The notes beneath the pieces were generated by a model. That model made no database searches. It was not told where the DNA came from and saw only the letters and a program-made list of their open reading frames with translations. This document shows, piece by piece, positions 30,013 to 53,441 of a stretch of 64,000 bases of DNA. Position 1 is the stretch's first letter. Each line of letters opens with the position of its first letter. This DNA comes from an uncultured Pseudomonadota bacterium. GTDB taxonomy: Bacteria > Pseudomonadota > Alphaproteobacteria > RUG11792. The position numbers were made by a program, and so were the translations under genes. The DNA lies in assembly GCA_902769055.1 (NCBI GenBank), contig CACXNL010000003.1, positions 20,693 to 84,692 on the forward strand, read 5' to 3'.

Positions 30013-30027
30013 TGTGGATTGTGGACG

Positions 30028-30056
30028 TTGACCAAATTGCTAAAGTGGGGTACAAT
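30028..30056 (+). promoter_or_regulatory. Predicted sigma70-type promoter of argS
   Basis: TTGACC - 17 nt - TACAAT, 39 nt upstream of ATG 30095. Confidence 0.55.
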
Positions 30057-30094
30057 TTCCGGTATTCGTGTTATAGTTGCCGGTTCTGTTAGAG

Positions 30095-31837: not shown

Positions 31838-31848
31838 AAGCCGAGGAC

Positions 31849-32862: not shown

Positions 32863-32868
32863 GCGGTC

Positions 32869-34014
32869 ATGCACAAGGGTTTATTTATTGTGGATTTTAC
32901 TCAAGAGGCTGAAGATTTTTTGATGTTGGATAAATTTGCGAAAGTTGTATCACGATCGAAAGCGGATTTGACCTATAGACAGTTGCCGCATTATTCGCGC
33001 AGTTACGTCGATTTTTCGAGCAACAATTACCTTGGCTTGTCGCAACAACCCGAAGTTATAGAGGCGGGCATTGCGGCAGCACGGAGGTATGGCGCAGGGG
33101 CGACTGGTTCTCGACTGCTTTCCGGAAATTATGAATTGTTTGAGGAATTCGAGGCGCAGATAGCCCGAGATAAAGGTACAGATGCTGCGCTGATTTTTAA
33201 TTGCGGATTTCAAGCGAATTCTGGAGTAATTGAGTGTTTGACCGACAAACATACCCTGGTTATTTTCGATATGTTAAATCACGCCAGTATGTATCAGGGC
33301 GTATTTGCGAGCGGCGCAAAATTAAAGCGTTTTCAGCATTTGGACTATACGCATTTAGAAGATATTTTAAAAGATGCGGTTAGGGAGTATAAAGATATAC
33401 TTGTTGTATCGGATACCGTATTTGGAATGGATGGAGACATCGCGGATATTCAAACTTTAATAGGTATATCAGAGGAATACGGTGCTATATTGTATCTCGA
33501 CGAGGCGCACGCGACCGGGCTTTACGGCAAGGGCGGGTATGGTCTTACTAAAAACTTCGATTTTGATAAGGAAAAAGTTATCATAATGGGGACTTTTAGT
33601 AAGGCTATTGGTTCGAGTGGGGCTTATGTTGCCTGTTCAGGTCTTATCAAAGATTTCCTGATACAGAAATGCAAAAGTTTTATTTATTCGACGGCACTTT
33701 CTCCGTTTTGTATTGGCGCTGCACAGAAAGCGTGGGAAATGCTGCCGTCATTGAACAGTATTCGTCAGAATATTATGCGTCGCGCGGAAAAGATACGCAG
33801 CGCTTTGGGAGGTGGCGGAAGTAAGACTAATATAGTGCCGATTTTGTTCAAAACGACGGAAGAGATGATGTTGAAAAAGCAAATTTTGGAAGCTAATGGC
33901 ATTATAGTTTCGGGTATACGTCCTCCAACTTCGCCAACGCCGCGTCTGAGAATTGCCGTTAACGCGACGCATACGGATGATGATATAGAGAAATTGATTG
34001 GAGTTTTAGCATAA
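32869..34014 (+). CDS. bioF: 8-amino-7-oxononanoate synthase
   Basis: 381 aa, alpha-oxoamine synthase family. SNNYLGL, DEAHATG and PLP-lysine motif TFSKAIGSSGAYV. Confidence 0.88.
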   Translation: MHKGLFIVDFTQEAEDFLMLDKFAKVVSRSKADLTYRQLPHYSRSYVDFSSNNYLGLSQQPEVIEAGIAAARRYGAGATGSRLLSGNYELFEEFEAQIARDKGTDAALIFNCGFQANSGVIECLTDKHTLVIFDMLNHASMYQGVFASGAKLKRFQHLDYTHLEDILKDAVREYKDILVVSDTVFGMDGDIADIQTLIGISEEYGAILYLDEAHATGLYGKGGYGLTKNFDFDKEKVIIMGTFSKAIGSSGAYVACSGLIKDFLIQKCKSFIYSTALSPFCIGAAQKAWEMLPSLNSIRQNIMRRAEKIRSALGGGGSKTNIVPILFKTTEEMMLKKQILEANGIIVSGIRPPTSPTPRLRIAVNATHTDDDIEKLIGVLA

Positions 34015-34607
34015 TGAAGAATTATTTATTGGCACATGGTTTTGGTTTTACGAATGATTACTGGCAAAATTTAACACCATTGTTGGATGGGGCTATATAT
34101 TTTTTTGATGCTCCGGATTTGGATAAATCAAAGACATACATCGGAATTGGGCATTCAATGGGATTTTTAAAACTCAACAATTCTGGATTGAAATTCGAGG
34201 CATTGGTAGCACTACAGGGCTTTCTGAATTATTGTGGAAGTACTGTTAGAATGCGGAGAGTTCGCGAAGCAGAATTGGCAAAGTTCAGAGAAAATGTAAA
34301 CTTAAATAAAAATGAGTGTTTAAGAAAATTTCGCGAATTTTGTGGATATACTCAAGATGTATTGGCTGATATTCCGTTGCACTTGTTGCAGGATGAATTA
34401 AACATGATGGAAAATAGTTACGAGCATTGCGGAGTAAAGACCTTAGTTATCGGAAGTACCGATGATGTCATTGTTCCAATGTCTATTATAAATGACAACT
34501 TTGCCCATTTAAAAAATGTTTCGATAGTTCTGCTGAATAATGGACGGCACGCACTGGGATACCTTTACCCCGAAATTGTTGCGAAGAAAATCTATGAATT
34601 TCAATGA
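34014..34607 (+). CDS. Small alpha/beta-hydrolase, probable pimeloyl-ACP methyl ester esterase (BioH/BioG-type role)
   Basis: 197 aa. Nucleophile elbow GIGHSMG. Position between bioF and bioC is typical of the esterase of the BioC-BioH pathway. Family assignment not resolved. Confidence 0.55.
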   Translation: MKNYLLAHGFGFTNDYWQNLTPLLDGAIYFFDAPDLDKSKTYIGIGHSMGFLKLNNSGLKFEALVALQGFLNYCGSTVRMRRVREAELAKFRENVNLNKNECLRKFREFCGYTQDVLADIPLHLLQDELNMMENSYEHCGVKTLVIGSTDDVIVPMSIINDNFAHLKNVSIVLLNNGRHALGYLYPEIVAKKIYEFQ

Positions 34608-35307
34608 TGCTGCTCTGGGTTACGACGAAAGTGCATTTGCACAAAAGCGGTGCGCTGTAGAGCTGGTCAAAATGCTTCCCAACGAAAACATTGCGTCGTT
34701 TATCGATGTAGGCGCGGGCACTGGCTTTGCTTCAGTCGAAGTTTTGAAGAAGTTCCCGAATGCAAAAGCGTTATTGCTTGATAAATCTGCAAGAATGTTA
34801 GAGATTGCAAAGACAAAAATCCCGTGCGCAACAACGATAATTGCTGATGCGGAAGTATTCGAGTTTTCAACGTACAATTTTGATTTAGCAATCGCAAATC
34901 TATCCCTTCAGTGGTTCAAGGATTTGGGTACTTTTATGACAAAAGTTTCATCCCATGCCAAGTATTTTGCATTTTCAATACCATTAAAAGGTAGCTTTAA
35001 AGAATATTTTGATGTTTTTAGAAATGTTAAATATCCAGATATAAAACTTTATACAGAAAGCGCGATTTTAGATATCATTCAGCAAAACGCAAAAGTTGTT
35101 TCAGCAAAACGCTGTATTATAAACGAAACCTATCCAAATGCCATTGAAGCAGCTAGACACTTCAGAAACATCGGCGCAATAACAACAGTAAATCAACAAA
35201 TTCAATCAAAAATCGCGGCTCGACTAAAAGCTCACCAAACGCCAGTAATGATAAGTTACGACATGTTTTTGTGTTTATTAAAAAGCCCCCTCACAATCCA
35301 GCACTAA
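34594..35307 (+). CDS. bioC: Malonyl-ACP O-methyltransferase
   Basis: Start MNFNDAALGYDESAFAQKR. SAM-binding motif FIDVGAGTGF, LSLQW motif. Follows bioF and the esterase. Confidence 0.8.
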   Translation: MNFNDAALGYDESAFAQKRCAVELVKMLPNENIASFIDVGAGTGFASVEVLKKFPNAKALLLDKSARMLEIAKTKIPCATTIIADAEVFEFSTYNFDLAIANLSLQWFKDLGTFMTKVSSHAKYFAFSIPLKGSFKEYFDVFRNVKYPDIKLYTESAILDIIQQNAKVVSAKRCIINETYPNAIEAARHFRNIGAITTVNQQIQSKIAARLKAHQTPVMISYDMFLCLLKSPLTIQH

Positions 35308-35333
35308 AATGTCCCTCCTCGTGCGAAAGCAAT

Positions 35334-35828
35334 TCAGGCTGCCTGTAAAACCATCTCAAGACGGCGTACTGCCTCGGATTCATCGATGTTTTCAACCACA
35401 GAAACCTCCCGCGCCAGCCGTTCCATCGCTTGCTGATACATCTGTCTTTCACTAAATGAAAGCTCCATTTCCCCTCCCTCTTTGTATAACTCGCGAACAA
35501 CTTGCGCTATGTTGACTGGATTTCCCGAATTGATTTTCAGCTCATACTCTTGAGCCCTTTTGCTCCACATCGCTTTTTTTCTTTTGCTTTTATGACGCAG
35601 AAACTCGAAAACTTCATTTATGTCATCTTTTGTTGAAATTTTCCGAAGCCCAGCGGAAACAGCTTTAACGGCTGGAATCTTTAAAGTCAAATTACACTTC
35701 TCGAAGTAAACTACAAGAAATTCCACGGATTCGTTATCCACTTCAACAGTCTCGACACCGCTTAATTTCCCAACTCCATGAGACGGATAAACTACCCATG
35801 ATCCAATTTCGAAGCCATTTCCACACAT
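35334..35828 (-). CDS. carD: CarD/CdnL family transcriptional regulator
   Basis: CarD_CdnL_TRCF domain FEIGSWVVYPSHGVGKLSGVETVEV..EFLVVYF. Met at 35828 gives a protein of about 165 aa. The ORF-track extension to 35945 runs into the family upstream module. Confidence 0.85.
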   Translation of the reverse strand: MCGNGFEIGSWVVYPSHGVGKLSGVETVEVDNESVEFLVVYFEKCNLTLKIPAVKAVSAGLRKISTKDDINEVFEFLRHKSKRKKAMWSKRAQEYELKINSGNPVNIAQVVRELYKEGGEMELSFSERQMYQQAMERLAREVSVVENIDESEAVRRLEMVLQAA

Positions 35829-35958
35829 TATCCGAAACACAATTCCACAATCACACAAAGTCATGCTATCACAGCCTATCATCAAAGTCAATTTGCCGAT
35901 AATTGATGTTATGGCTAAGTTTATTGGGATACAGTTATTTATCAATTATTATTTGTAT

Positions 35959-36368
35959 TTCATTCTTCTTACAAAAAAGCAAGGAATGCTCCTGTGCAAA
36001 AATTGTGTCGCACACAATGCGTCGTTATTTGCGTTGAGGTTATCGCAAATTTTATGGATTAAAGCTATAAAATCAAGGCTTCTGGTGCGATTTTTATTTT
36101 TTTATACGATTTTGGTAAAAAAAGTTAAAAAATGTGTTGACAAAAGTCGCGGGGGGAGAATTAACTCGTGGTTTTGAAAAAGGTATTAAAAAATGCAAAT
36201 GAAGAAAAACAAAGTCCTGTTATTGAGTGGCACAGTGCTGTTTTCAGTGATGGGCGGTATCGAGAAAGCTAATAGCACCGAAATGCAAAACGAGATGAAC
36301 ATAATCAACGAAGAGAGACCCGTTGTGACAACAAATGTTGAGGAAAACAAGGCTCCGCGCATGGATGA
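35959..36368 (+). repeat. Family 5' cassette, copy A (upstream region, promoter, 5' UTR and first ~58 codons)
   Basis: Near-identical by eye to 41553-41963 (inverted) and 45042-45370 (direct). Similarity ends abruptly after the codons for ...ENKAPR. Confidence 0.8.
36137..36161 (+). promoter_or_regulatory. Family promoter of gene A with a G6 tract in the spacer
   Basis: TTGACA-aaagtcgc-G6(36151-36156)-AGAAT. If the -10 box is GAGAAT, the spacer is only 13 nt. Confidence 0.45.
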
Positions 36369-37412
36369 TGAGATAAAGAAGCGTACTGAAGAGCTTCTGG
36401 GAGGCGGGAAAAATATTGATATTCCTGATGACGGGAGAGAATACGTAGTAGTGCACCGCTTGAAAAAATTAAGAACGGATAAAGATATCGATAATGAGTT
36501 GCAAGTTGCTGTGCACCTGGCAGAGAGGGGAGAAGTATCCCTCCAATATTACAACGAGGATTTGCGAGAGTACTTTGAGGGGGAGAGACGTTTACGCGCA
36601 ACTTGGCTGCCGATTTGGGTCTAGAGGGTGTGCCATACGTAAGACCAGAAAATAAGGATAAAAAGCTCGACAATCAAGAATACGTTAAAGAGGAACAAAA
36701 TGAACCATATCGAATTGAGAAAAGCGACAGCAACGTTGACGTAAACTTGCAAGAATGTAAACTGGACTTCCGAGAACTCAAAAAGGAAGAGGAAGATAAA
36801 AAGCAGGACGAGAAAACAGAGCTGAATAATGAGGAAATAAACAATACCAACAATGAGGGCAATGATTTCAACATAAATAACGAAAAACAAGAGCCGGAAG
36901 TTCAAAACACCGCATACATCAATCTTGACGTGACGAAGAAAACACCATACTTTTTCCACGAAGATGAAGACTCAAATGACAACGACCCTACAATGTTGCG
37001 CGATATGCTCCAATATGAAGGCGAGGGCAAGAATGGCAACGAAATACAACAGATAGAGTTAAAAAACGAGATTGATAATGACAACGACATAATAAACTAT
37101 GAGCCAAACAACGACATACTAGGGAACAGCGAAAAAGATCCAGAGTTTCTTGCCAATGAGATGTATGAGAAAGTCACAGGGCAAAAGGTTCCGGAGCACA
37201 TACTAGCATATCAGCGCAAGATATATAATACGTATAAAATTGAGGATAAACAACCTGAGCACTCGATCGATATAGAAAAGGCAACTCACAAGACCTGGTT
37301 CCAAAAAGCGGTAACGACGGTAAAGAGTGGATTAAGTAATGCATGGTCAACTGTAAAACGCGGGTTTAGCTTTGGGTGGAGCAAAGTAAAATCTTCTGTA
37401 TTCAAATGGTAG
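36193..37412 (+). pseudogene. Family member A, split by a frameshift at an internal G5 tract
   Basis: ORFs 36193-36624 (signal peptide and N-terminus) and 36603-37412 (acidic core and tail KTWFQKAVTTVKSGLSNAWSTVKRGFSFGWSKVKSSVFKW) are in different frames. The downstream frame opens exactly at G5 (36579-36583). Paralog B reads GAG GGA GAG AC at the same place (G3). Confidence 0.7.
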
Positions 37413-37440
37413 TAATTGGAAATCAAAACTGAAATCAGCG

Positions 37441-37472
37441 GAGCATCACCTTAGCGGGTGATGCTCTTTTTT
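37441..37472 (+). terminator. Rho-independent terminator of family gene A
   Basis: GAGCATCACC-ttagcg-GGTGATGCTC followed by T6. Confidence 0.75.
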
Positions 37473-37502
37473 AAGGGTGTGGTACCTTTAATAGGTGCGA
37501 GA

Positions 37503-38849
37503 TTATAATTCGATATAGCGAATAGTGCTGAGGAACATCGATTGAGCGCACTCGATTTCTGAATTGGTCTTTGCTTCTATCATAACTCTGGTCACCGGTT
37601 CTGTCCCCGACTTCCGGACGACAATTCTGCCATTATCACGAAGCATTTCGTTTATTTTATTGATACAATCCGAAATTCTTGCATCAGACAAGTCGAGAAT
37701 TCGCGGTATATTTTTCATAATTTGTGGATACGGCGTGTACAAACTTCTGATTTCACTAGCTCTCTCCTTGTTCTGTTGCAAGAAACTCAGTATCTGTATT
37801 GCTGAAATACAGCCATCACCAGTCGACGAGTAATCAATCGGAACAATGTGTCCGGACTTCTCACCGCCAATATTCGCGCCAATTTCCACCATTTTCTGTA
37901 TGACAAACTTGTCGCCGACATTCGTTCTGACAAGATTTAGCCCAATCGAATTCAGGTACTTCTCCATCCCCATATTCGACATAATCGTTGCGACAACGTT
38001 ATTACTCCTGAGTTTCCCAGAAGTTTTCCATGAAGTTGCAATCGCCGCTATCAGATAATCACCATCGATTACTTCACCTTTTTCATCAACTACAATCAGC
38101 CTATCCGCATCGCCGTCAAGCGCTATGCCAATATCCGCCTGATGCTCAACTACGGTTCGTTGCAACAATTCAGTATGAGTAGCGCCGCAATCTTTATTGA
38201 TATTTAATCCATCAGGTTCATTACCAATTTGTATTATCTCAGCGCCAAGCTCCCAGAAAATTTGCGGGGCTATTTTATAAGATGCGCCATTAGCAGTATC
38301 CAAGGCAATTTTTAGCCCAGATAAACTGAGGCTTTTCGGAAATGAACTTTTCACAAACTCAACATAACGTCCCTGCGCATCGTCTAGCCGCCGGGCTTTT
38401 CCCATATCTTCAGTCGCGCTTAATTTCGGATGATTGTGAAATATTTCACTAATCTTGATTTCTTCATCTTCGATAATCTTAAAGCCACTCGCATTAAAAA
38501 ACTTTATACCATTGTCATAATACGGATTGTGCGATGCTGAAATTACGACCCCCAAATCCGCCCTAAGCGACCGCGTCATAAAAGCTACTGCCGGAGTCGG
38601 AATTGGTCCCAACAAGACGACATCAGCTCCAGCGGCTATGAAACCTGAAGTCAGCGCCGGCTCCAGCATATAGCCGGAAAGCCGCGTATCCTTGCCAATT
38701 ACCACAGTGAACTTATTGTTTACACTACGGTGACTTGTGGTCGCGTAGTAGTTCACGACGGAGACCGCCAGTTTCATCGCATTTTCAGGCGTTATATACC
38801 CCTCATTCGCCCTTCCTCTAACACCGTCTGTTCCAAAAATATTATCCAT
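37503..38849 (-). CDS. glmM: Phosphoglucosamine mutase
   Basis: 448 aa. GTDGVRG, phosphoserine loop ISASHNPYYDNG, metal loop DGDADR, GEKSGH. Confidence 0.93.
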   Translation of the reverse strand: MDNIFGTDGVRGRANEGYITPENAMKLAVSVVNYYATTSHRSVNNKFTVVIGKDTRLSGYMLEPALTSGFIAAGADVVLLGPIPTPAVAFMTRSLRADLGVVISASHNPYYDNGIKFFNASGFKIIEDEEIKISEIFHNHPKLSATEDMGKARRLDDAQGRYVEFVKSSFPKSLSLSGLKIALDTANGASYKIAPQIFWELGAEIIQIGNEPDGLNINKDCGATHTELLQRTVVEHQADIGIALDGDADRLIVVDEKGEVIDGDYLIAAIATSWKTSGKLRSNNVVATIMSNMGMEKYLNSIGLNLVRTNVGDKFVIQKMVEIGANIGGEKSGHIVPIDYSSTGDGCISAIQILSFLQQNKERASEIRSLYTPYPQIMKNIPRILDLSDARISDCINKINEMLRDNGRIVVRKSGTEPVTRVMIEAKTNSEIECAQSMFLSTIRYIEL

Positions 38850-40738
38850 TATTCCTCATCGCTTGTTGGCAATCCGCCCAGTTTAAAATCGTCCAGGTCA
38901 TCCTCTATAGGCGCTGCCCTTTTGAGCTTTTTGCCCTCAAAAATCCGCTTTACCTCATCTCCAGTTAAAGTCTCGTGCTCCAGCAGGCTAAGCGCCATAC
39001 GCTCCAGTTTCTTTTTATGTTTCGTAATCATTCCTTTTACCTCCGCATACGCCGCCTCTATTATGGCTTTGACCTCGGAATCGATAGTCTCGGAAGTATT
39101 CTGAGATATTTGGTCGCTCGCATCCAAGTAATACCCATCAGCAGAATCGTAGAACGTCCTTAAACCTATTTTGTCGCTCATTCCCCACTTTATAACCATT
39201 TTCTTAGCTACATCCGTCGCCTGTTTCAAATCCGACGATGCACCAGTAGTTATGTTGTCCTGTCCGAAGAATATTTCTTCTGCGGCTCGTCCACCAAGTG
39301 ATACTCGTATATTTGACAACAACTCGGTCTTTGTTACCGATACTTTGTCTTTCTCTGGCAGCCTCACGACCATACCCAAAGCGCCGCCGCGCGGAATTAT
39401 CGTGACCTTATGTATCGGGTCACATTGTGGAACCAAAAGTGCAATGAGTGCGTGTCCAGCCTCGTGATACGCGGTATTCCGCTTTTCCTCATCCGTCATA
39501 CTCATCGATTTCCGCTCAGCTCCCATAATGACTTTGTCCTTAGCCAATTCGAAATCCTTCATAGCAACCGACAATTTGTCGTCACGAGCCGCCAAAAGCG
39601 CTGCTTCATTGACCAAATTTGCCAACTCTGCTCCTGAAAATCCAGGTGTACCACGCGCTACTGTCTTCAGATCAACATCCGGAGAAAGCGGAACATTTTT
39701 TGTATGCACAGTCAAAATTTTCTCACGCCCATTCATATCCGGGTACTGCACCGTAATGCGCCGGTCAAACCGCCCAGGACGTAGCAACGCCGGATCGAGT
39801 ATATCGGCGCGATTAGTTGCTGCCAACACTATAACGCCTTGATTTTCATCAAATCCGTCCATTTCGACTAATAACTGGTTCAATGTTTGTTCTCGCTCAT
39901 CATTACCTCCTCGCCCGCTGTCACGACGACGCCCAACCGCATCTATTTCATCAATGAATATTATGCAAGGCGAATTTTTCTTAGCTGTCTCGAATATATC
40001 ACGTACCCTACTGGCACCGACACCGACGAATACTTCAACAAAATCTGAGCCAGAAATGCTGAAAAACGGCACACCCGCTTCGCCCGCAATGGCTTTTGCC
40101 AGCAAAGTTTTCCCATTTCCAGGATCACCAACAAGCAGCATACCTCGCGGTATTTTGCCTCCCAGCCTTTGATATTTTTGCGGCGCCTTCAAGAAATCAA
40201 CGATTTCCTCCAATTCTTGCTTTGCCTCATCTATTCCGGCAACATCCGCGAACGTAATTTTGATTTTTTTCGGCTGGAACATTTTCGCTTTTGATTTGCC
40301 TATGCCGAAAGCACCTCCTCCGAAGCCACCGCCTTTCCCGCCTCCCTGCATTTGGCGCGCCGAATATATCATAAGCCCAATCAGAAGTAGGAATGGGAAC
40401 CACTGTATTAGCGCCGATACCAGGTATCCCCAACCCGAATCGCCGCTTTCAACTTTTATCTCGACGCCATTATCTAGCAATTTCTCGACCATTTTCGCAT
40501 CATATGGCGTAATCGTGCTAAATACAGACCCATCATTGAGCACACCAGTGAGCTTTGACGAGGTGTTTCGAATATTCACCTCTTTCACATCTCCGGCAGA
40601 AACCGCTTTTATGAATTTAGAGTATGTGATTTCCTTCGGATTACCTCCTAATATTTTCGAGTCAAATGGCGCAGCTATCAAAAACAATAAGCCGATTAAA
40701 AATATCCACGATAGAATATTTTTTGTATTTCTGTTCAT
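38849..40738 (-). CDS. ftsH: ATP-dependent zinc metalloprotease FtsH
   Basis: Two N-terminal TM helices, Walker [12 protein letters not shown], Walker [12 protein letters not shown], zinc motif HEAGHAL. Met at 40738 ([11 protein letters not shown]) is preferred because the ORF-track extension contains a terminator hairpin. Confidence 0.95.
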
Positions 40739-40810
40739 TTCCAATGCTCGAAAGTTCTTTACGCCGCCATTATACCACCTAATCTCATGTGGTGGCTTCT
40801 TTTTTAATAC

Positions 40811-40841
40811 AAAAAGCACATCACCCGTTCAGGTGGTGTGC
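40811..40841 (-). terminator. Rho-independent terminator of family gene B
   Basis: Minus strand reads GCACACCACC-tgaacg-GGTGATGTGC (one mismatch) followed by T5. The sequence is related to the gene A terminator. Confidence 0.65.
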
Positions 40842-40866
40842 CTCGCGTTTCAAGATTTGTGGCGTT

Positions 40867-41724
40867 TTACTTCAACTTAAAGACAGATTTTACTTTTTGC
40901 CATCCAAAGGTAAATCCGCTCTTAATAGCAGTCCAGGCACGGGTTATTCCGCTCTTGACTGTAGTCGCCACTTTGCTATACCAAGGTTTTAACTCTATCT
41001 TCTTTTCGATTATTGTAGATTGACCTTTAAAGAATTCGTTATATTTTATTGGTATTGGTGATTCTTGCTTTTTTACGAAATCGGGCACAGATTGCCCTGT
41101 CTTTTCTTCGTATATTTTATTGAAGGGAAGTGCATCGGCCTCCTTTCTTATGCGGTCACCCTCGCCTTGTTTCTGTGTGAGAGTTATGGTTCCAGTATTA
41201 TCGTTACTCTCTTTAGAAGTACTCAGTTCCTTATTATTCTTTTTATCGTCATTCGTTTTGTCGTCGTTCTCACGTTTTAGATCATATATCTCATTTTCGA
41301 TGCTTAGATCTTGATCGTCGTCTTCTGGGAGCTCTATGATGCTGTGAAGTTTGTTTAGGTATTTACTCGATATTATGAAACTCTTGTTTAGTATGTCGTT
41401 GTGATCTTTCGCCTCTGTGTCCTCCTTATTATCTTTTTCATCCTCGTGATTGTCGGTTAGACCAGATTGCTTCTGATTGTTATTCCTGACGTACGGTACC
41501 CCCACCTTACCTAACGCTTTAGCTACAGTGACAGGCATAGTCTCTCCCTCATATATTCGCGGAGCCTTGTTTTTCTCAACATTTGTCGTCACAACAGGTT
41601 TCTCATCATTGATGATGTTTATCTCGTTCTGTATTTCAGCGCTATTAGCTTCCTCGACACTACCCGTTACTGAGAACAGCACTGTGCCGCCCAATAATAG
41701 AGCTTTGTTTTTCTTCATTTGCAT
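40867..41724 (-). CDS. Family member B: secreted acidic protein with the conserved Trp/Lys tail
   Basis: 285 aa. MQMKKNKALLLGGTVLFSVTGSVEEANS signal peptide, D/E/N/K-rich core, tail KPWYSKVATTVKSGITRAWTAIKSGFTFGWQKVKSVFKLK. Confidence 0.8.
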   Translation of the reverse strand: MQMKKNKALLLGGTVLFSVTGSVEEANSAEIQNEINIINDEKPVVTTNVEKNKAPRIYEGETMPVTVAKALGKVGVPYVRNNNQKQSGLTDNHEDEKDNKEDTEAKDHNDILNKSFIISSKYLNKLHSIIELPEDDDQDLSIENEIYDLKRENDDKTNDDKKNNKELSTSKESNDNTGTITLTQKQGEGDRIRKEADALPFNKIYEEKTGQSVPDFVKKQESPIPIKYNEFFKGQSTIIEKKIELKPWYSKVATTVKSGITRAWTAIKSGFTFGWQKVKSVFKLK

Positions 41725-41963
41725 TTTTTAATACCTTTTTTAAAACCACAAGCTAATTATCCCCCCCCGCGACTTTTGTCAACACATTTTTTAACTTTTT
41801 TTACAAAAGTCGTATAAAAAAATAAAAATTGCACCAGAAGCCTTGATTTCCTAGGCTAAATGTATAGAATTTGCGATAATTTTTTTTTGGTAACGGCGAC
41901 GCATCATGCGCGACGCAATTTTTGCACAGGCGCATCCCTTGCTTTTTTGTGAGAAGAATGAAT
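41553..41963 (-). repeat. Family 5' cassette, copy B (inverted relative to copies A and C)
   Basis: The reverse complement aligns by eye with 35959-36368 from gaattCATTCTTCT.. through the promoter, 5' UTR and first ~58 codons. Confidence 0.8.
41756..41782 (-). promoter_or_regulatory. Family promoter of gene B with a G8 tract in the spacer
   Basis: Minus strand reads TTGACA-aaagtcgc-G8-ATAAT, so the -10 box is GATAAT and the spacer is 15 nt. The tract is C8 at 41761-41768 on the plus strand. Confidence 0.5.
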
Positions 41964-41990
41964 TCTGATACCTCCCTACGCAATTACACC

Positions 41991-42067
41991 TGGTGTCCCC
42001 GGTGGGATTTGAACCTACGACCTCAGGATTAGGAATCCTACGCTCTATCCATCTGAGCTACGAGGAC
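41991..42067 (-). tRNA. tRNA-Arg (anticodon CCU)
   Basis: 77-nt cloverleaf on the minus strand: acceptor GTCCTCG/CGGGGAC (one G-U), D-arm GCTC-AGATGGATA-GAGC, anticodon arm TAGGA-TTCCTAA-TCCTG, T-arm GTAGG-TTCAAAT-CCCAC (one A-C mismatch), ACCA end. Confidence 0.85.
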
Positions 42068-42249
42068 ACGCGCTTCATTGTAGCACGTAGGCGCCGGTGC
42101 CACAAACCATCTTCTACCGCAACGAATAATTGTCACTGGTGGCGGGAGAAAAAATTCAATAAATGCCGAAAACTTAAGCTGTCCATCACAAACGTTAGAA
42201 ATATTTCTCGCATGTGTGTTTTGAACAAAGAAAAATGTTAACAAATATG

Positions 42250-42278
42250 TTGCCGTGAGCAATGATATGAGTTACAAT
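42250..42278 (+). promoter_or_regulatory. Predicted canonical promoter of family gene G, with no homopolymer tract
   Basis: TTGCCG - 17 nt (tgagcaatgatatgagt) - TACAAT, about 34 nt upstream of GTG 42312. The flanking sequence (aaaaatgttaacaaatatgttg) matches the family promoter module. Confidence 0.55.
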
Positions 42279-42311
42279 TGCTCTGTAAGTTTTAAAGAGG
42301 TGTTTTTTAAG

Positions 42312-43352
42312 GTGGAGACAAGAAATATAGTGCTGAGCGGTGCCGTGCTGTTTTCGGTAATCGGAAGTGTAGAGGTGGCGAATGGCGCTGTGTTAAATCA
42401 AGAGATGAAATCAGAATTGGGGGGGGGCAACCACAATTTTCGATCTTCGCTAGCTCCTCTGAAAGGCAAATCTGAATTTGCGGAAGATGCAATAACGCAA
42501 TTGCCTTTGGGGAAAACTAGTAAACCTGGTTTGCTACAGCACGATATGCGAAAAACAGCGGCTATGAGTGAGGATCTTGGTTATCTCAGCACTGAAGGTG
42601 ATATGGCTGAAGATGACCTAGAAGAGCAAAATGCAAATATTTCAGATAATTCCATTGAATTATATATTGTCAATGAAAATAAAGTTGACAAAGGTGAAGA
42701 AATACGTACACACAAAACCATGATAAGCGTGTTGGACGAATTTAAGGACGACGCCTATAACGATGCAAAGAACGAAGATATAAACGAGAATAGCGCCGAT
42801 AAGGAATATGATTTCGATATTGATGATGATCCCGAATATGACGAAGCAGTAAGAAAGCACAAAGATATGATGAAGCGAGGATGTGAAGATAAAAAGGAAT
42901 ACAGTAGCCATGACACTCAAAACGTTGAGGAGTTTATACAGCCTGCGGAGCCACAAAATAGCGGGCGTACTGAGATAACAGAACAACATCGCTACAGGGT
43001 ATCGTCATTTACCATGGAGTTCTCGCCAACGTCATTTACCATGAATCAATCGGGTAACATGACGTTTTCTATAGTGAAGGAAAAAGATTGTGCTGATGAC
43101 GATATCTACCGTCAGCTTTACGAAGTTGCCATGAAGAAAGCCGACGAGACATGGAAGCATGAGCTGTGGATGCAACAACTCTCTTGGTTTGAGCGCACTG
43201 TATACAAGCTGAAAAAGTCGGTGAGTTGTATCGTGCATAAAGCATGCACAACCTTATCAAGGTTTGCGTCCAAATTCACGTCTATCTTCAAAAAGAAGAA
43301 TAGTTCGATTATTTCAAAGAGGATACGTGGAGAGGTTCCGCCTCTAGCGTGA
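42312..43352 (+). CDS. Family member G: secreted acidic protein with a G9 tract in the coding region
   Basis: Probable GTG start after AAGAGG. Signal peptide (V)ETRNIVLSGAVLFSVIGSVEVANG, acidic core, basic tail LSWFERTVYKLKKSVSCIVHKACTTLSRFASKFTSIFKKK. The ORF-track ATG at 42255 lies inside the predicted promoter. Confidence 0.7.
   Translation: METRNIVLSGAVLFSVIGSVEVANGAVLNQEMKSELGGGNHNFRSSLAPLKGKSEFAEDAITQLPLGKTSKPGLLQHDMRKTAAMSEDLGYLSTEGDMAEDDLEEQNANISDNSIELYIVNENKVDKGEEIRTHKTMISVLDEFKDDAYNDAKNEDINENSADKEYDFDIDDDPEYDEAVRKHKDMMKRGCEDKKEYSSHDTQNVEEFIQPAEPQNSGRTEITEQHRYRVSSFTMEFSPTSFTMNQSGNMTFSIVKEKDCADDDIYRQLYEVAMKKADETWKHELWMQQLSWFERTVYKLKKSVSCIVHKACTTLSRFASKFTSIFKKKNSSIISKRIRGEVPPLA
42419..42427 (+). 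repeat. Intragenic G9 homopolymer (codons for Gly-Gly-Gly) about 36 codons into gene G
   Basis: gaa ttg GGG GGG GGc aac. Read by hand, a -1 slip reaches TAG after 10 codons and a +1 slip reaches TGA after about 19 codons. Confidence 0.9.
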
Positions 43353-43562
43353 GAGGATTACTTTTTCACTAATTACGAAGCTGTTGATGAGACATCATCG
43401 TCAGCTTCAGTGCGTGAAGCGGGCGATGCTACGTTTCGTGGCTGTGTCGTTATAAGCAAAAAGGATTGTAGCAAAATCTCCGATTTCTCGAATGGTAAAT
43501 TTGGACTTCGGACATAAGGATAAACTTTTTGGATAATTTTTAACATAAAAGATACAAATAGT

Positions 43563-43591
43563 ATTGACATATGATGCGGGGGGGGGGACAA
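43563..43591 (+). promoter_or_regulatory. Family promoter of gene D with a G10 tract in the spacer
   Basis: TTGACA-tatgatgc-G10(43577-43586)-ACAAT, so the -10 box is GACAAT and the spacer is exactly 17 nt. Confidence 0.55.
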
Positions 43592-43623
43592 TATGCCCCG
43601 TAAACTTCGATGGAGTGTTAAGA

Positions 43624-44919
43624 ATGAAAAGAAATAATTTGTTGCTGGGCGGCACAGTGCTGTTCTTGGTATCTGGGGGTATGGAGATGGCACATGCCTC
43701 TGAGATGAAGCATGAGGTGACCTGGAAGACGCGACTGAATTTTGATATGCCAAAGACAATAAGTCAAAAGCTGGGAGCGCCGGAAAGAGGTTTCCGCTCT
43801 GCGCAAAGGATAATGCAGGGTGGTAAAGCTCACACAAAGTTGCCTAGTTTTCAGAGCAACAGTACAGAGGATGATCAAAGCGACGGCAACGGGGTGGCTG
43901 AGGAGTTAGATCAAAAGTTTGTCAGTGGACAAAAGATACGCGAAGATTTTGAATACAACGTGGGCATGGAGGAGTTCGGCGAGGAAACACTCGGTGAAAA
44001 TCTCCCTGGGGTAGGGAAAGTATCTGGAAGCGTAATTGGCACTTCGGGCTCGTATTTTAAGAACACCGTTCACAAGAAGGATGGCGTGGATCTTTCGGAG
44101 AAGAGTATCGACCCAAAAGTTAAGGCGCAAAACACGTATAGTTTTACGCAAAAAAGCAAAGAGTTCGATGACATGATGGGGCTAGATGAAGGCGTCGATC
44201 CGATCAGCTGCTTAGTTCCGAGTTCAAATAAGGGTGATAAGAATGACGTGGCTCTCGGGAAAGTACATCCATACAGTCCTAAAAGTGCGTTAAGGTACTT
44301 TACGCATACGCATAAGAAGGGGGATCGTCGTGAAGGTAATGAATCTGAGATAATAGAACCGCAGAGTGCCTTGTATAACATAAGCAATGCGATTACCACG
44401 AACAAGCTGGAGATTAACGACAAGAAAAACGAGGACGATGAAGAAATACCGAATATAAAGAGAAACCTAGGCGAGGACTTTGCTGAGGATTTCCAGAATG
44501 AAGACGAGGTGAACGATAAGGAGAACGCAATTGGAATAAAGGAAGATCAAGGTAATTGCTCAGAAGATGTTAAAGGGGACGATAAAATCGAAAACGCTAA
44601 TAATGAAGAGAAAGTAAAAGGAGAATCAGCCGATAAAGACGCGCAGTTGAATAATATAGCCCTGAACGCGAGCAAAGAACTTCAGATTAACGAGCAGGTT
44701 TTGGGCAAACAGACCACAGATGAAATAATCGACCCGAGTACTAAACAAAGCGAGACTATAAAGAAGAACAGCGACGATGATAATAATAACAAAATAGTCG
44801 TTGAGTATGAAAAGCCAAGAAAGTGGTACAGTGGTATTATTTCAGTAATAAAGCGCGCTGTAAATTACGTGGTAACTTCCATCAAATCTGGATGGAAAAG
44901 TCTGAAATCTCGATTTTAA
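43624..44919 (+). CDS. Family member D: secreted acidic protein with the conserved Trp/Lys tail
   Basis: Start MKRNNLLLGGTVLFLVSGGMEMAHA after GGAG. 431 aa. E/D/N/K-rich C-terminal half. Tail RKWYSGIISVIKRAVNYVVTSIKSGWKSLKSRF. Confidence 0.8.
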   Translation: MKRNNLLLGGTVLFLVSGGMEMAHASEMKHEVTWKTRLNFDMPKTISQKLGAPERGFRSAQRIMQGGKAHTKLPSFQSNSTEDDQSDGNGVAEELDQKFVSGQKIREDFEYNVGMEEFGEETLGENLPGVGKVSGSVIGTSGSYFKNTVHKKDGVDLSEKSIDPKVKAQNTYSFTQKSKEFDDMMGLDEGVDPISCLVPSSNKGDKNDVALGKVHPYSPKSALRYFTHTHKKGDRREGNESEIIEPQSALYNISNAITTNKLEINDKKNEDDEEIPNIKRNLGEDFAEDFQNEDEVNDKENAIGIKEDQGNCSEDVKGDDKIENANNEEKVKGESADKDAQLNNIALNASKELQINEQVLGKQTTDEIIDPSTKQSETIKKNSDDDNNNKIVVEYEKPRKWYSGIISVIKRAVNYVVTSIKSGWKSLKSRF

Positions 44920-44929
44920 ACTTACTTCC

Positions 44930-44963
44930 GGAGCGAACTGATACAGGCTCGCTCCGTTTTTTT
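44930..44963 (+). terminator. Rho-independent terminator of gene D
   Basis: GGAGCGA-actgatacaggc-TCGCTCC, then G and T7. Confidence 0.7.
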
Positions 44964-45041
44964 AAATCACCATAGATAAAGGATTGTGCTCTTCTGTGGG
45001 ATTAGCGCTAGCTGGGAGATGCGTTACTTTCGACGAAAGAA

Positions 45042-45370
45042 ATTGTCGCAAATTTTACAGATTAAAGCTAGGAAATCAAGGCTTCTGGTGCAGATTTTAT
45101 TTTTTTTACGATTTTGGTAAAAAAAGTTAAAAAATATGTTGACAAAGGTCGCGGGGGGGAGAATTAACTTGTAGTTTTGAAAAAGGTATTAAAAAATGCA
45201 AATGAAGAAAAACAAAGTCCTGTTATTAGGCGGCACAGTGTTGTTCTCAGTAATGGGCGGTATCGAAAAAGCTAATAGCGCAGAAATACAGAACGAGATA
45301 AACATCATCAACAAAGAGAAACCTATTGTGATAAACAACACTGAGGAAAACAAGGCTCCGCGCATGGATG
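45042..45370 (+). repeat. Family 5' cassette, copy C
   Basis: Aligns by eye with 36040-36368 (..tcgcaaatttta..aatcaaggcttctggtgc..ttgaca..atgcaaatgaagaaaaacaaagtcctgttatt..). Confidence 0.75.
45139..45164 (+). promoter_or_regulatory. Family promoter of gene C with a G7 tract in the spacer
   Basis: TTGACA-aaggtcgc-G7(45153-45159)-AGAAT. With a GAGAAT -10 box, the spacer is 14 nt. Confidence 0.45.
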
Positions 45371-45999
45371 AGAATGTTAACAATATCGAGAATCCAGTGA
45401 ATATCGATATTCAGAAGCGTGTAAAAGAGGTGCTAGGAGACGGTGATGACTTCGAAGATCCTAAGGATAGCAAAGAGCGAGTGGTATTTAATCCATGCGA
45501 TACGGATGAGAAAAAGCAAGAGGGGATACTGCTGAACATAGAATATGTAGAACGAGGTGTCCAGAATGTAAAAACTGCAAACCACGCTATAACTGATGTA
45601 CTGGAGGGGCAAACGGTCGAAAAGGAGTATATAGATCCAGGCATGGAACCGTATTGCAAACCGTATACACCGAATAAAAACGAGAGCAATGAAGAAGATA
45701 AGAAGGAAAATGACAATAACATAATAACAAAAACGACAAATGAAATTGAGTTCACCAAAATGTATGAACAGGAAACAGGTCAAAAAGTTACTGACAGCGT
45801 CAAGCAAATGCAGAACGAGATACTAAGCAAGTACACCGTTGAGACTAAGAAACCTATGGATGCGAACGATGTAGAGCAAGCGAAGTCGGTGACTTGGTAT
45901 GGCAAAGTCTTCAATAAGGTCAAGCATGGACTCAATTATGTTTGGACTAGTATAAAGACTGGATGGAGCAAAGTAAAGTCTATTTTTAAGTGGAAGTAA
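45196..45999 (+). CDS. Family member C: secreted acidic protein with the conserved Trp/Lys tail
   Basis: 267 aa. MQMKKNKVLLLGGTVLFSVMGGIEKANS signal peptide. Tail VTWYGKVFNKVKHGLNYVWTSIKTGWSKVKSIFKWK. Confidence 0.8.
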   Translation: MQMKKNKVLLLGGTVLFSVMGGIEKANSAEIQNEINIINKEKPIVINNTEENKAPRMDENVNNIENPVNIDIQKRVKEVLGDGDDFEDPKDSKERVVFNPCDTDEKKQEGILLNIEYVERGVQNVKTANHAITDVLEGQTVEKEYIDPGMEPYCKPYTPNKNESNEEDKKENDNNIITKTTNEIEFTKMYEQETGQKVTDSVKQMQNEILSKYTVETKKPMDANDVEQAKSVTWYGKVFNKVKHGLNYVWTSIKTGWSKVKSIFKWK

Positions 46000-46027
46000 A
46001 CCGATACTCGGGAGCACCATATAAGGG

Positions 46028-46060
46028 GCACTATCTGAATGGATAGTGCTTTTCTTTTTT
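46028..46060 (+). terminator. Rho-independent terminator of gene C
   Basis: GCACTATC-tgaatg-GATAGTGC followed by TTTTCTTTTTT. Confidence 0.7.
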
Positions 46061-46161
46061 GCAATGAGTGGGAAAGGGCGTTTTAAGTACAAATTGTACA
46101 TTACCCCAGCACAGATGTTGACGGCTAATGTCGCTAATGCTACAATGGGAGCATCGTTCGA

Positions 46162-46238
<77 letters not shown>

Positions 46239-46254
46239 AATTTAATCGAGAGCG

Positions 46255-47349
46255 TTGGTGTTTGGTTCTTTAAAACGGGTATCACACAAAACTCCAGAGA
46301 AGCAGGTGGGCGCGTATCCGGGGCGTCTTATAGGGAAGTTGATATACGCTCCTGGGAAGTTTTCTTTCGTTAAAGCGGTGGATGTTGCGATCAAATCGTG
46401 CGATGTGGATTTCGTAAGCATTAAGTCGAACATCAATTATTCTTCCAAATATACCGACGTTTCGGTGATTGAGGGATTGAAGGATGGTATTGCCGAGATA
46501 TATGTGAATACGTCGGGAATATCTGGAATAGATGGTATATTGCCGGATTGCTATACCGAGGAGTATATAACGCATAATAGCGAGCATAAAAAGGCGGTTG
46601 TCGATTTTTTGGATATATTTAACGAACGCATATTGATGCTACGATACAGGTATTTAAAAAGACAAAACGTCGAGACACTCTCTGTACCGATCGAAAAATC
46701 GCTTATTGGAAAAATAATTTATAGCCTTTCAGGATTTGGCTTTGATGAAGATCATGAACGGGTAGTTCCGAATATTATTCCAGAGCAGTTTAAGATTTCC
46801 GTACAAAATTTGCTGTGGAGGTATACACGTTCCGCTTCGGGATTAAAAGCCATTCTTGAGAGCTTCTTTAAAATACCTGTAGAAATACGTCAGTTTGAAG
46901 GAGGATTTGTTCGGGTAAGTCCCGGAGAACAAACATCAATTGGAAAGAGGGGAAATTATAATAAATTGGGGCAGAACAGTTTCTTAGGGGATAAAGTTTG
47001 GGATGCGACGCAAGGTATTACAATTTTGATTGGCGCTTTAGATTTCAAGCAGTATGCTAAATTTTTGCCGAAACAATCTCATTTGGATCAAAAATTCTCG
47101 CCGCTTCAAAAGATGAAAGAGATAATAAGGCTATACGTCCCACATGGAATTAAGGTCAATTTACGTTTCTTTTTGGATAAATGTGCGGTAAAAGGTACTG
47201 TTTTAAACGGGACAGAGCGATTGAATAAAGATTCTTTTATATTTGGAGTGCATGGTTCTAAAAGTGCTTTTTTTGAGGAGATACGAAACCTGAAAAAGAA
47301 AAGAAGCCTTCGATGGCTAATCCAAAAAGTTTCCCTAGTATTACTTTGA
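46255..47349 (+). CDS. tssG: Type VI secretion baseplate subunit TssG (ImpH family)
   Basis: 364 aa. Matches TssG landmarks by eye: FSFVKAVD, GIDGILPDCYTEEYI, VVDFLDIFNERILMLRYRYLKR, FFKIPVEIRQFEGGFV, LGQNSFLGDKVWDATQGITILIGALDFKQYAKFLP, LRFFLDK. TTG start 17 nt after the tRNA. Confidence 0.85.
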   Translation: MVFGSLKRVSHKTPEKQVGAYPGRLIGKLIYAPGKFSFVKAVDVAIKSCDVDFVSIKSNINYSSKYTDVSVIEGLKDGIAEIYVNTSGISGIDGILPDCYTEEYITHNSEHKKAVVDFLDIFNERILMLRYRYLKRQNVETLSVPIEKSLIGKIIYSLSGFGFDEDHERVVPNIIPEQFKISVQNLLWRYTRSASGLKAILESFFKIPVEIRQFEGGFVRVSPGEQTSIGKRGNYNKLGQNSFLGDKVWDATQGITILIGALDFKQYAKFLPKQSHLDQKFSPLQKMKEIIRLYVPHGIKVNLRFFLDKCAVKGTVLNGTERLNKDSFIFGVHGSKSAFFEEIRNLKKKRSLRWLIQKVSLVLL

Positions 47350-47576
47350 ATGATGGATTAAACGAGGCTGAAACATCGGCAAATGCTATGTTGATACATA
47401 AAATTTTGCAAAAAAGATTGCTTAATGGTGGGTTGAATACGCAACGTCAGCAAGCCATTTTTATGCGGATATTGGATAATGAACTGGCAATTAAATCAGG
47501 ACAACTCGACCCGGCAACTGCCACTAGAGATTCGCTTATTTCATTTTATGTTATGGGAAAGATATTGGCACACTAG
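47313..47576 (+). CDS. Hypothetical 87-aa protein overlapping the tssG 3' end
   Basis: ORF only (MANPKSFPSITLNDG...). Overlaps tssG by 37 nt in another frame. No recognisable domain. Confidence 0.3.
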   Translation: MANPKSFPSITLNDGLNEAETSANAMLIHKILQKRLLNGGLNTQRQQAIFMRILDNELAIKSGQLDPATATRDSLISFYVMGKILAH

Positions 47577-47741
47577 TAGGATTTGCGATTAGCTGTTGCC
47601 TTTTTCTTAAATGAGTTTGTTGCTGTGTTGGGGAGATTTCGCGCGTCAAGCCTTTTTGTGATTTTTTCAGAAAAATTTTGTCGGATGAAAATTTTATGCG
47701 AAAAATGGGAAATTTTAGTTCAAATTTGGTTCCAGACCGTG

Positions 47742-47771
47742 TGAACCTGAAGGTAGGTTCAACCTTTTTTT
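47742..47771 (+). terminator. Terminator-like hairpin plus T7, 10 nt upstream of the 47781 start codon (terminator of the tssG unit or a leader attenuator)
   Basis: TGAACCT-gaaggt-AGGTTCA-acc-TTTTTTT. A possible promoter TTGTCG-17-AAAAAT lies at 47678-47706, upstream of the hairpin. Confidence 0.55.
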
Positions 47772-47780
47772 GGATATCTT

Positions 47781-48812
47781 ATGAACAGAAAGTTAGCAGT
47801 AGCAGCAGCTATGACCGCGATTGTCGCATCAACACCTCAAGCAATGGAAGCAAGTCCAAAGGCACAAGCAGAAGACACATTAACAACTCGCAGACAATTT
47901 GATGTATTGTGCGCAACGACAAATGCCTTTAATCCAGCATCGATAGGTTTAATGCAACAGCAATTTGACCTGATACAGCGGAAGTCTAGAGTTTCGATCG
48001 GCTTAGAGCAAACTGAGATGAGCAACTCACAAAATGGAATCGCGATATTGTTGAATGGATATGCACATAACCTAACTCATTCTATGAATTTTATGGATGA
48101 TAGAACATCAAAAAGTTTACTAGTGGCATTACTCGAGCAAGAAGGAAAGAAAGATTTACTAAAAAATTTGAAGATACCAGCTTTACATTTCGAAAATGGC
48201 GAAAAAGAGGGCTTCGATCCTGAAAAATATATCATTTTCGTGAATTACAACAAGTATAAAGCGGATGGCACGATGAAAGAGCCGGTTTGCGGGTATGACC
48301 AAGAGACTGGGCAAATCGTACCCAAAAATATTACGGTGCAACATGCTGTGTATCGTGGATTTATGACTGCTAGTGATTACTTGACGCATCATTTATTCCC
48401 AAAACACTGGGATGTTGCAAAACCACTTGATATCATTTATGGCAAATCGGATATTCATAAATCGCTTTGGAAAACAGACGATTCTTTTGCTACTCCGGGA
48501 GATAACCTGTTAGCAATTTCTGGCGCAGTGGCATCGAAAGATGAGGTAGAACATCTCCCATTCAGTGAGCAACTGTTTGATTATTTCGAACATCGTCGCA
48601 AATCGCCTGGACAAAAGTTTATCCCTCGTGTGTTTTCAGTAACGTATAGAGAATATCAACAAATTGCTAAAGCAAATCCAAAAGCAGATCTTTTGCTGAA
48701 TATCACAAAAACGATATGCCCTGCTGTGAAAGATGAAGAAGCTCAAAAGAAAGAAAACCTCGAAGCATTGAAGTTTTTGAAAAGTTTGTTTCTAATTAAC
48801 AACAAAGCATAA
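47781..48812 (+). CDS. Secreted protein of unknown function
   Basis: 343 aa. Signal peptide MNRKLAVAAAMTAIVASTPQAMEA. Globular, non-repetitive, no motif recognised. Confidence 0.65.
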   Translation: MNRKLAVAAAMTAIVASTPQAMEASPKAQAEDTLTTRRQFDVLCATTNAFNPASIGLMQQQFDLIQRKSRVSIGLEQTEMSNSQNGIAILLNGYAHNLTHSMNFMDDRTSKSLLVALLEQEGKKDLLKNLKIPALHFENGEKEGFDPEKYIIFVNYNKYKADGTMKEPVCGYDQETGQIVPKNITVQHAVYRGFMTASDYLTHHLFPKHWDVAKPLDIIYGKSDIHKSLWKTDDSFATPGDNLLAISGAVASKDEVEHLPFSEQLFDYFEHRRKSPGQKFIPRVFSVTYREYQQIAKANPKADLLLNITKTICPAVKDEEAQKKENLEALKFLKSLFLINNKA

Positions 48813-48823
48813 TTTTGCAAATT

Positions 48824-48846
48824 GGCGCGCTTTTCTTATGCGCGCC
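48824..48846. terminator. GC-rich hairpin between convergent genes 47781-48812 and pnp
   Basis: GGCGCGC-ttttcttat-GCGCGCC followed by TTT on the plus strand. Lies 7 nt from the pnp stop on the other strand. Confidence 0.6.
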
Positions 48847-48852
48847 TTTCCG

Positions 48853-50919: not shown

Positions 50920-50932
50920 TTATTACCTTTCC

Positions 50933-50957
50933 AAAAATCTCAGCACCATTGCTGAGA
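50933..50957 (-). terminator. Hairpin plus T5 in the pnp leader (terminator of the upstream gene or a pnp regulatory hairpin)
   Basis: Minus strand reads TCTCAGC-aatggt-GCTGAGA-TTTTT, then GGAAAGG and ATG of pnp. A second hairpin TTATCCT..AGGATAA lies at 50974-50994. Confidence 0.45.
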
Positions 50958-51200
50958 ACAAATTATTTTTAACTTATCCTCCAGAGAAGGATAACACGAA
51001 CTCTGCAAATCCGTATTAACAACATGATTGGTTGAAATCAGGATTTTACCTCCCAGTTTTGCATCGTCCAGGACATTCGTTCTAATATTATCACCAATCA
51101 ACAACAGGAATACATAATCATATTCGGTTTTTGATATATCTTTGTATTAAAATGTATCGTACTTTATCCAATATATACAGCATGCATCACAGTACAAACG

Positions 51201-53404: not shown

Positions 53405-53441
53405 TCGGGCGAAATGTGTGTTTTTGAAAAAAAAAAGCAAA

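Follow-up and report, generated by a model that had tools for sequence, protein, structure and literature searches.

In the 64,000-nucleotide stretch analysed here (the window), which comes from an uncultured rumen alphaproteobacterium (GTDB lineage RUG11792; contig CACXNL010000003.1), three paralogous genes, termed A, B and C, begin with a shared 5′ cassette that carries upstream sequence, a poly-G promoter, the 5′ untranslated region (UTR), a signal peptide and a short N-terminal module (N-module). This cassette is quite probably a real recombination substrate, whose copies re-pair promoters and gene bodies by homologous recombination within a phase-variable-type family of surface or secreted proteins. 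The reading is based on observed features, namely the repeats, their geometry, the arrangements found in different strains, the mosaicism of the cassettes and the variation of the tract length. A first-pass annotation of the window had proposed the cassette as a substrate for promoter/body re-pairing, and the comparison between strains bore this out, since related strains carry alternative arrangements that break within the cassettes.

A self-comparison repeat search and blastn located the three cassettes to within a few bases of where the first-pass annotation had placed them:

35959..36368, + strand: cassette A
35959-36039, + strand: upstream extension of cassette A, common only to A and B
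36040-36192, + strand: core of cassette A, with the upstream part, TTGACA (36137-36142), poly-G run G6 (36151-36156) and 5′ UTR
36193-36368, + strand: codons 1-58 in cassette A, i.e. signal peptide and N-module i, with the end KAPR
41549..41962, − strand: cassette B, layout as A, with TTGACA (41777-41782), G8 (41761-41768) and the ATG at 41724
45043..45371, + strand: cassette C, core only, with TTGACA (45139-45144), G7 (45153-45159) and the ATG at 45196

From 5′ to 3′, a cassette consists of the upstream core, which starts from TTRTCGCAAATT, the TTGACA box, 8 nt and the G run, followed by (A)GAATTA.., the 5′ UTR, the ATG, a signal peptide of the pattern MQMKKNK.LLL.GTVLFSV..G..E.ANS and a 28-codon N-module with an NKAPR end. 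The repeat search of the window yielded a direct A/C pair (36151-36368 and 45154-45371, 89%, start-to-start 9003), an inverted A/B pair (36148-36368 and 41549-41769, 86%, arms 5180 nt apart) and an inverted B/C pair (41548-41767 and 45153-45372, 86%, arms 3385 nt apart), and upstream stretches found for A and B only (36040-36159 and 41760-41879 at 90%; 35959-36024 and 41897-41962 at 89%). By gapped blastn, identities of 84.5% over 414 nt for A/B and 88.8% over 330 nt for A/C were determined, i.e. the paralogs share a conserved 5′ block of 330-414 nt, upstream sequence included, in front of bodies that cannot be aligned; at 84.5-88.8% identity, calling the copies near-identical was an overstatement. 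Exact stretches common to the window copies measure 42, 54 and 38 nt, and a 20-nt promoter core returned three exact and two three-mismatch matches in the window versus none in 100 shuffles. Within the cassettes, identity amounts to 89-92% in the noncoding core, 88-91% at codon positions 1 and 2 and 71-78% at third positions. Beyond ..NKAPR, the gene bodies are only 36-40% identical in a forced alignment, which is the noise level, and become alignable again solely at the Trp/Lys-rich (W/K-rich) C-terminal tail and the terminator hairpin (59-68% identical), in agreement with the earlier description of a sharp end after ..ENKAPR and of bodies diverging up to the 3′ tail.

The features that the cassettes bracket, and those flanking them, are as follows:

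35334..35945, − strand: carD, the left neighbour of cassette A, fixed in strain types I and II
36193..37412, + strand: family gene A, split by a frameshift into open reading frames 36193-36624 and 36603-37412
37305..37471, + strand: 3′ tail of gene A (W/K-rich C-terminal helix) and terminator hairpin
37503-38849, − strand: glmM, PGM_PMM I-IV domains, inside the A-B segment S1
38849-40819, − strand: ftsH, FtsH_ext/AAA/M41 domains, inside the A-B segment S1
40811-40974, − strand: counterpart tail and terminator of gene B
40867..41724, − strand: family gene B, 285 aa
41963..45042, no strand: segment S2 between the inverted cassettes B and C, with tRNA-Arg, G and D
41991-42067, − strand: tRNA-Arg(CCU), in S2
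42255-43352, + strand: gene G, in S2, with a coding G9 tract (42419-42427)
43624-44919, + strand: gene D, in S2, with its own promoter of TTGACA (43564-43569), G10 (43578-43587) and GACAAT
45196..45999, + strand: family gene C, 267 aa
about 45892-46059, + strand: counterpart tail and terminator of gene C
46162-46238, + strand: tRNA-Met, fixed right flank past gene C in both strain types
46255-47349, + strand: tssG, fixed right flank past gene C in both strain types

The geometry had thus been read correctly from the outset: A and B are inverted around glmM-ftsH, B and C are inverted around tRNA-Arg, G and D, and A and C are direct repeats 9 kb apart.

Contigs encoding family members were aligned to the window by blastn, the related strains being 92-97% identical; the strain comparison was made on short-read metagenome assemblies, with run data taken as Logan contigs (21 runs). 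Type I, found in the window and in contig L001, has the order carD, cA→, A, glmM, ftsH, B, ←cB, tRNA-Arg, G, D, cC→, C, tRNA-Met, tssG (c, cassette); L001 matches the window at 99.97% across its covered part (30867-44270) and independently confirms the carD/A and B/tRNA-Arg joints. Type II was found in four samples (ERZ27280604, ERZ28613915, ERZ1048193 and ERZ1029116; 93-97% identical over shared segments). At its carD locus, L095 3828-10090 equals window 30026-36282 at 94.5%, and next to it L095 10308-20624 equals window 45677-55939 at 94.1%, i.e. carD and cassette A (to 36282) run directly into the 3′ half of C (from 45677), which is orthologous to the lone hybrid gene (P0006) that lies between carD and tRNA-Met/tssG in type II. 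The ∼9.2-kb block between the direct cassettes A and C, with the A body, glmM, ftsH, B, tRNA-Arg, G and D, is not at the type II carD locus; it is intact at a second locus of the same assembly set (L008/L009/L010), beside groES/EL. There, L009 1560-5200 equals window 41635-45303 at 93.6% (in ERZ27280604 and two other assemblies), directly followed by L009 5292-10835, which equals window 36341-41882 at 92.9%, and then by groES/EL, giving the order X, ←c, tRNA-Arg, G, D, c→, A, glmM, ftsH, B, ←c, groES/EL, where X is a further gene body. Such a layout would be expected if a circle formed by cA × cC re-entered via cB into a cassette at an X/groEL locus, and the reverse order of events would fit it equally well. 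The predicted deletion between the direct repeats, with loss of the essential genes selected against, accords with a block that is gone at carD and kept whole near groES/EL.

Two further arrangements place the cassette downstream of gene D in front of other bodies. In type III, L007 1-224 equals window 44812-45035 (the D 3′ flank) at 98% and then continues with a B-type cassette plus the B body (96.3%); the joint between flank and cassette falls in unique sequence, and runs X2, X3 and X4 share this loose end, leading from 41886 into the D flank. In type IV, L096 has the X body (98.8% identity with that of L009) behind the D 3′ end and a cassette, an order that would correspond to type II with the tRNA-Arg-G-D segment flipped. 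The D-flank cassette therefore precedes four bodies in four assemblies, C in the window, A in L009, B in L007 and X in L096, as the flipping of cassette-bounded segments would give. To this extent the segment inversion foreseen by the first-pass annotation is supported, whereas inversion of the A-B segment specifically is unproven. All synteny breaks between strain types lie inside cassettes (at least six junctions), and the alternative arrangements with junctions in the conserved block, four downstream of D and the 9-kb block at two loci, are differences between strains. Certain ‘opposite-strand joints’ of run X1 had been considered as within-sample chimeras and were dropped: the one re-examined, at the B cassette, was C's own unitig lying partly on B.

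The cassettes themselves are mosaics. The B ortholog of L009 (L009Z) has an upstream core resembling window C (95%) more than window B (87%), and a post-signal part that is 100% like B, while B orthologs are 99-100% identical in body and post-signal part. In L007, the core is 97% like B and the flank 98% like the flank of C, and the cassette of L009Y matches C at 99% in the signal peptide and then continues through a different N-module into the A body. A permutation test on informative sites modelled on the pairwise homoplasy index (PHI-like) was significant for the cassettes across strains (p = 0.0016 with nine sequences and p = 0.0002 with seven), with 519 of 1081 and 580 of 1378 site pairs being incompatible (about 42-48%) and the incompatible sites clustered by distance. 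The gene conversion earlier suspected from the sharp boundary is supported by the mosaics and the test, but not as a recent event: the window copies differ by 11-15% and their third codon positions are 71-78% identical, so recent homogenisation of these copies by conversion is not indicated. The crossover points differ among cassettes: L007 has its crossover at the upstream edge of the core, L009Z in the core/promoter interval, and L009Y and L095 at or beyond the signal peptide. In the 64-kb window, the search for integrase, resolvase, invertase and transposase genes (Pfam on ∼40 of 53 long open reading frames, the other 13 being housekeeping or family genes by eye) was negative, and there are no recombinase genes among the annotated neighbours of the related loci; RecG (6850-8937) and RecJ (12572-14341) are encoded in the window. 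Scattered crossovers together with the lack of a recombinase gene in the window favour homologous recombination. For RecA-type recombination in E. coli, the minimal processing segment is roughly 25 nt, a length exceeded by the 38-54 nt exact stretches of the window copies.

Under the favoured reading, cassettes lying in both orientations with exact stretches of this length would serve as substrates for general, presumably RecA-type, homologous recombination. A crossover between inverted copies would flip the intervening segment and so bring another gene body behind a given flank and promoter; one between the direct copies A and C would loop out the 9-kb block as a circle, which could survive only by re-entering another cassette; and short conversion tracts would turn the cassettes into mosaics of each other. 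The net result would be that promoters, each with its own slippage-prone poly-G tract, are re-paired with variable gene bodies, which might serve adaptive surface variation.

Each cassette comes with a TTGACA box and a poly-G promoter of its own, and in A, B, C and the promoter of D the box sits 8 nt upstream of the G run. Across cassettes the G tract ranges from 6 to 14 nt and differs between assemblies of one locus, such as G8 in L005 versus G9 in L006, and, at another locus, G11 in L008/L010 versus G14 in L009/L094; for cassette C, variants of +1, +2, +5 and −1 were found in other runs. These lengths were read from assemblies and so describe variation between assemblies or populations. A putative −10 box would be the xAxAAT hexamer starting from the last G, namely GAGAAT in A and C, GATAAT in B and GACAAT in D, and the spacer would then be 8 + n − 1 nt, with n the number of Gs. 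A consensus promoter scan made a call for D alone (TTGACA-17-GACAAT). Unlike the variable cassette tracts, the tract of gene D is G10 in every assembly examined (the window, L001, L008-L010 and L094), so with the putative −10 its spacer would be fixed at 17 nt. The scored type II cassettes have G9-G11, with the exception of cassette Y (G14 in two assemblies), and their spacers would be 16-18 nt, while those of window A, B and C would be 13-15 nt and, by analogy with porA and tp0126 (PMC7864442), would make weak promoters. Like promoters (TTGACG/TTAACA, short spacer, G11 or G6TG4) were also observed at 21812-21834 (−) and 28754-28778 (+), preceding the DUF285 (BspA-like) secreted-protein genes at 20139-21773 (−) and 28918-29946 (+). 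The use of the poly-G promoter module is therefore not restricted to a single protein family. A further G9 tract (30004-30012) lies about 65 nt upstream of argS (30077-31837).

Several points weigh against the recombination reading. The whole evidence base consists of short-read metagenome assemblies, recA and mutS were not seen and lie outside the window, and the support is between strains, extending neither to switching nor to a rate within one population. Type III is ambiguous, since it could be either type I with the S2 segment (tRNA-Arg-G-D) flipped or type II with the S1 segment (A-B) flipped. Type IV depends on L096, a single k87 contig, and this one contig may be a chimera, as an 88-nt exact cassette stretch exists across strains (window C and L009Y). 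The degree of divergence of the window copies is itself such a point, and it leads to the view that only conservation is at work, with old duplications kept under purifying selection and synteny differences unrelated to the cassette. This is what one would expect from the better conservation of codon positions 1 and 2 than of third positions, from a noncoding core that is kept better than synonymous sites, and from copies within a genome that are more diverged (85-89% identical) than orthologs between strains (93-97%); selection on the promoter, leader and signal peptide accordingly explains part of the similarity and of the sharp boundary. As a full account, however, it is improbable, because it leaves the confinement of every strain-type breakpoint to the cassettes, the mosaic cassettes with their distance-clustered incompatible sites, and the joining of one flank to different bodies in different strains without a cause.

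That assemblers misjoined contigs across the repeated cassette is rather less probable still. The data would permit it in being entirely short-read, with Logan unitigs of run X1 breaking at each cassette, the 88-nt stretch shared between cassettes of different strains, and L096 and L007 each being a single contig; but type II was recovered from four samples by different assemblers (k87, k141 and two scaffolded sets) and is consistent at two loci, the block being missing at carD and present at groEL, exact sharing among the window cassettes does not exceed 54 nt, the L007 joint falls in unique sequence and was found again in three runs, and L001 confirms carD/A and B/tRNA-Arg. Misassembly is thus unlikely for types I and II, because assemblers agree, the type II loci are consistent and the exact repeats (38-54 nt) are shorter than k (87-141). 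Least credible of all is a site-specific shufflon, in which a dedicated recombinase would frequently invert segments at a short cassette site, cf. Mycoplasma vsp/vpma/vsa. Invertible segments are indeed bracketed by inverted cassettes, and codon 30, the signal-peptidase site, has several homology breaks close to it (36282, 41635 and about 45303), but this clustering arises because the variable N-module begins there, other crossovers lie at the upstream core edge or in the core/promoter interval rather than all at one short conserved site, and the searches of the window and of the neighbours of related loci brought up no integrase, resolvase or invertase. At the other extreme, the homologous-recombination reading may be extended to a genome-wide and frequently used recombinase-free network that re-pairs poly-G promoters and bodies within a population, carries glmM-ftsH and tRNA-Arg along and varies the surface or secretome, in an organism possibly associated with host cells or protists; we regard this extension as doubtful.

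The family itself is small and lineage-specific, consisting of Sec-exported, acidic and mostly disordered proteins of which the cassette is the shared 5′ expression module. Its members have a Sec signal peptide, no lipobox and no Pfam match; 11 relatives were found in a protein collection of 5.8 billion clusters, and none by a family-alignment scan of the GTDB representative genomes or by two metagenome scans at the Joint Genome Institute (a DNA pattern and the family alignment). The AlphaFold model of gene C (mean pLDDT 46) is mostly disorder plus a long C-terminal helix. All family members, D included, were seen to end in a Trp/Lys-rich amphipathic helix (..W..K..V..G...W...K.GW.KVKS.FKWK), encoded at 37305-37412, 40867-40974 and 45892-45999 in A, B and C; this is the sole confidently helical part of the model and, as modelled, may be a membrane or envelope anchor. 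After the signal peptide, at least three unrelated versions of the N-module exist, every one with the KAPR end (P0002, P0004-P0006, P0008 and P0011; L009 1404-1649), and their invariant A-P-R could mark a site of processing or sorting; run X6 possibly holds a fourth version. The proteins P0002, P0004, P0005 and P0006 represent all four pairings of N-modules i and ii with bodies a and b. At the rpsT-uvrC locus of related strains (L002/L005/L006), a further cassette-bearing family gene was observed (P0002/P0004); the genome therefore has copies outside the window that could join in long-range recombination. As to the host, the window PNPase is 85% identical to that of a rumen metagenome-assembled genome (‘uncultured proteobacterium RUG14192’) and 55-58% identical to those of Azospirillum and other Alphaproteobacteria, and the region is contained in runs of gut metagenomes, among them bovine and goat ones.

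The system is kin to known contingency gene families with conserved 5′ cassettes, here in an unfamiliar organism. In T. pallidum, tpr chimeric alleles arise between paralogs. As here, tpr paralogs (subfamily II tprE/G/J, and tprL) are conserved at the 5′ and 3′ ends and variable in the centre, and tpr and tp0126 have a length-variable poly-G tract at the promoter; in contrast to tpr, the present proteins are unrelated and without Pfam match, the tract lies between TTGACA and the putative xAxAAT box in every copy, and the cassettes bracket housekeeping genes, with whole segments relocating between strains. The combination of poly-G promoters and chimeras is documented for tpr (PMC7864442, PMC3656149), and in tp0126 a variable poly-G in or next to the promoter sets the level of transcription, with 17-nt spacing being optimal (PMC7864442). 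All copies in the window are full-length, each with promoter, start codon, signal peptide and terminator, and do not form the single expression site with promoterless donor fragments of the Anaplasma msp2/p44 and tprK type. The sap paralogs of C. fetus reportedly have in common a conserved 5′ region extending into upstream sequence, and inverted copies are said to permit a mainly RecA-dependent inversion that brings a new gene body behind the promoter (Dworkin and Blaser; refs 27-28 in PMC5634654). The conserved 5′ region and the inverted copies are alike in both systems, but in sap one promoter is moved among otherwise silent genes, an arrangement not found among the window copies; as each copy here has its own promoter and poly-G tract, inversion would re-pair promoters and bodies and would not switch genes on or off.

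The H. pylori genes babA/babB/babC and related hop genes are paralogs at separate loci with conserved 5′ and 3′ ends, whose chimeras place one body under the promoter and slippage tract of another locus. Their phase tract is a coding CT repeat (in sabA, a promoter poly-T), whereas here it is a promoter poly-G, and bab has no invertible block of essential genes, whereas here glmM-ftsH and a tRNA lie in the shuffled segments. In the Mycoplasma vlp genes, a homopolymer tract lies in the promoter spacer. As here, the 5′ noncoding region and the signal peptide are highly conserved in vsp, vpma and vlp, with inversions re-pairing promoters and bodies, but their products are lipoproteins, the present ones having no lipobox, and in those systems a dedicated Xer-type recombinase acts at a defined site, while here none was found in the window and the crossovers are scattered. 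These Mycoplasma genes are the nearest recombinase-driven comparison (PMC5634654), and recombinase-independent chimeras, deletions and duplications occur there as well (PMC5634654).

The locus provides a natural example of a shared 5′ cassette lying at every breakpoint between close strains, with an essential-gene block moving in one case, and extends the contingency-locus architecture, in which poly-G promoters and recombination cassettes go with a modular variable family, beyond the well-studied pathogens to an uncultured alphaproteobacterium of the gut or rumen, here with a protein family that is essentially unknown, given so few relatives and no Pfam match. For metagenomics it is a warning, as such loci break assemblies and vary by strain.

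A repeated GyGTCGC element in the conserved upstream part had also been put forward as a possible operator, which found no support: GYGTCGY is common throughout the window (40 matches versus 21 ± 4.6 expected), and the motif pair is absent from cassette C and most others, including L009Y, L009Z and the uvrC-locus cassette. The pair occurs only in the A/B-type extension; L009X retains it, and L095 has it in degraded form. A small palindrome persists through a double change (GTG-TCG-CAC in A versus GCG-TCG-CGC in B), which would be weak support for an operator.

Some minor observations concern individual genes. The frameshift split of gene A recurs in L001 and in the contig of run X1, another strain lacks 2 nt at 36579, and the ortholog P0008 is intact at 424 aa. 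Gene A is probably a pseudogene in this strain. In gene G, the coding G9 tract sits right behind the signal peptide; run X3 has one extra G, and the ortholog is broken in two (61 + 263 aa) in L008-L010. The tract resembles those of translational phase variation. Parts of a type VI secretion system were seen in isolation in the window, with no cluster of the system visible: TssG adjoins tRNA-Met, and a DUF4280 (PAAR-like) gene (9771-10139) adjoins tRNA-Gln.

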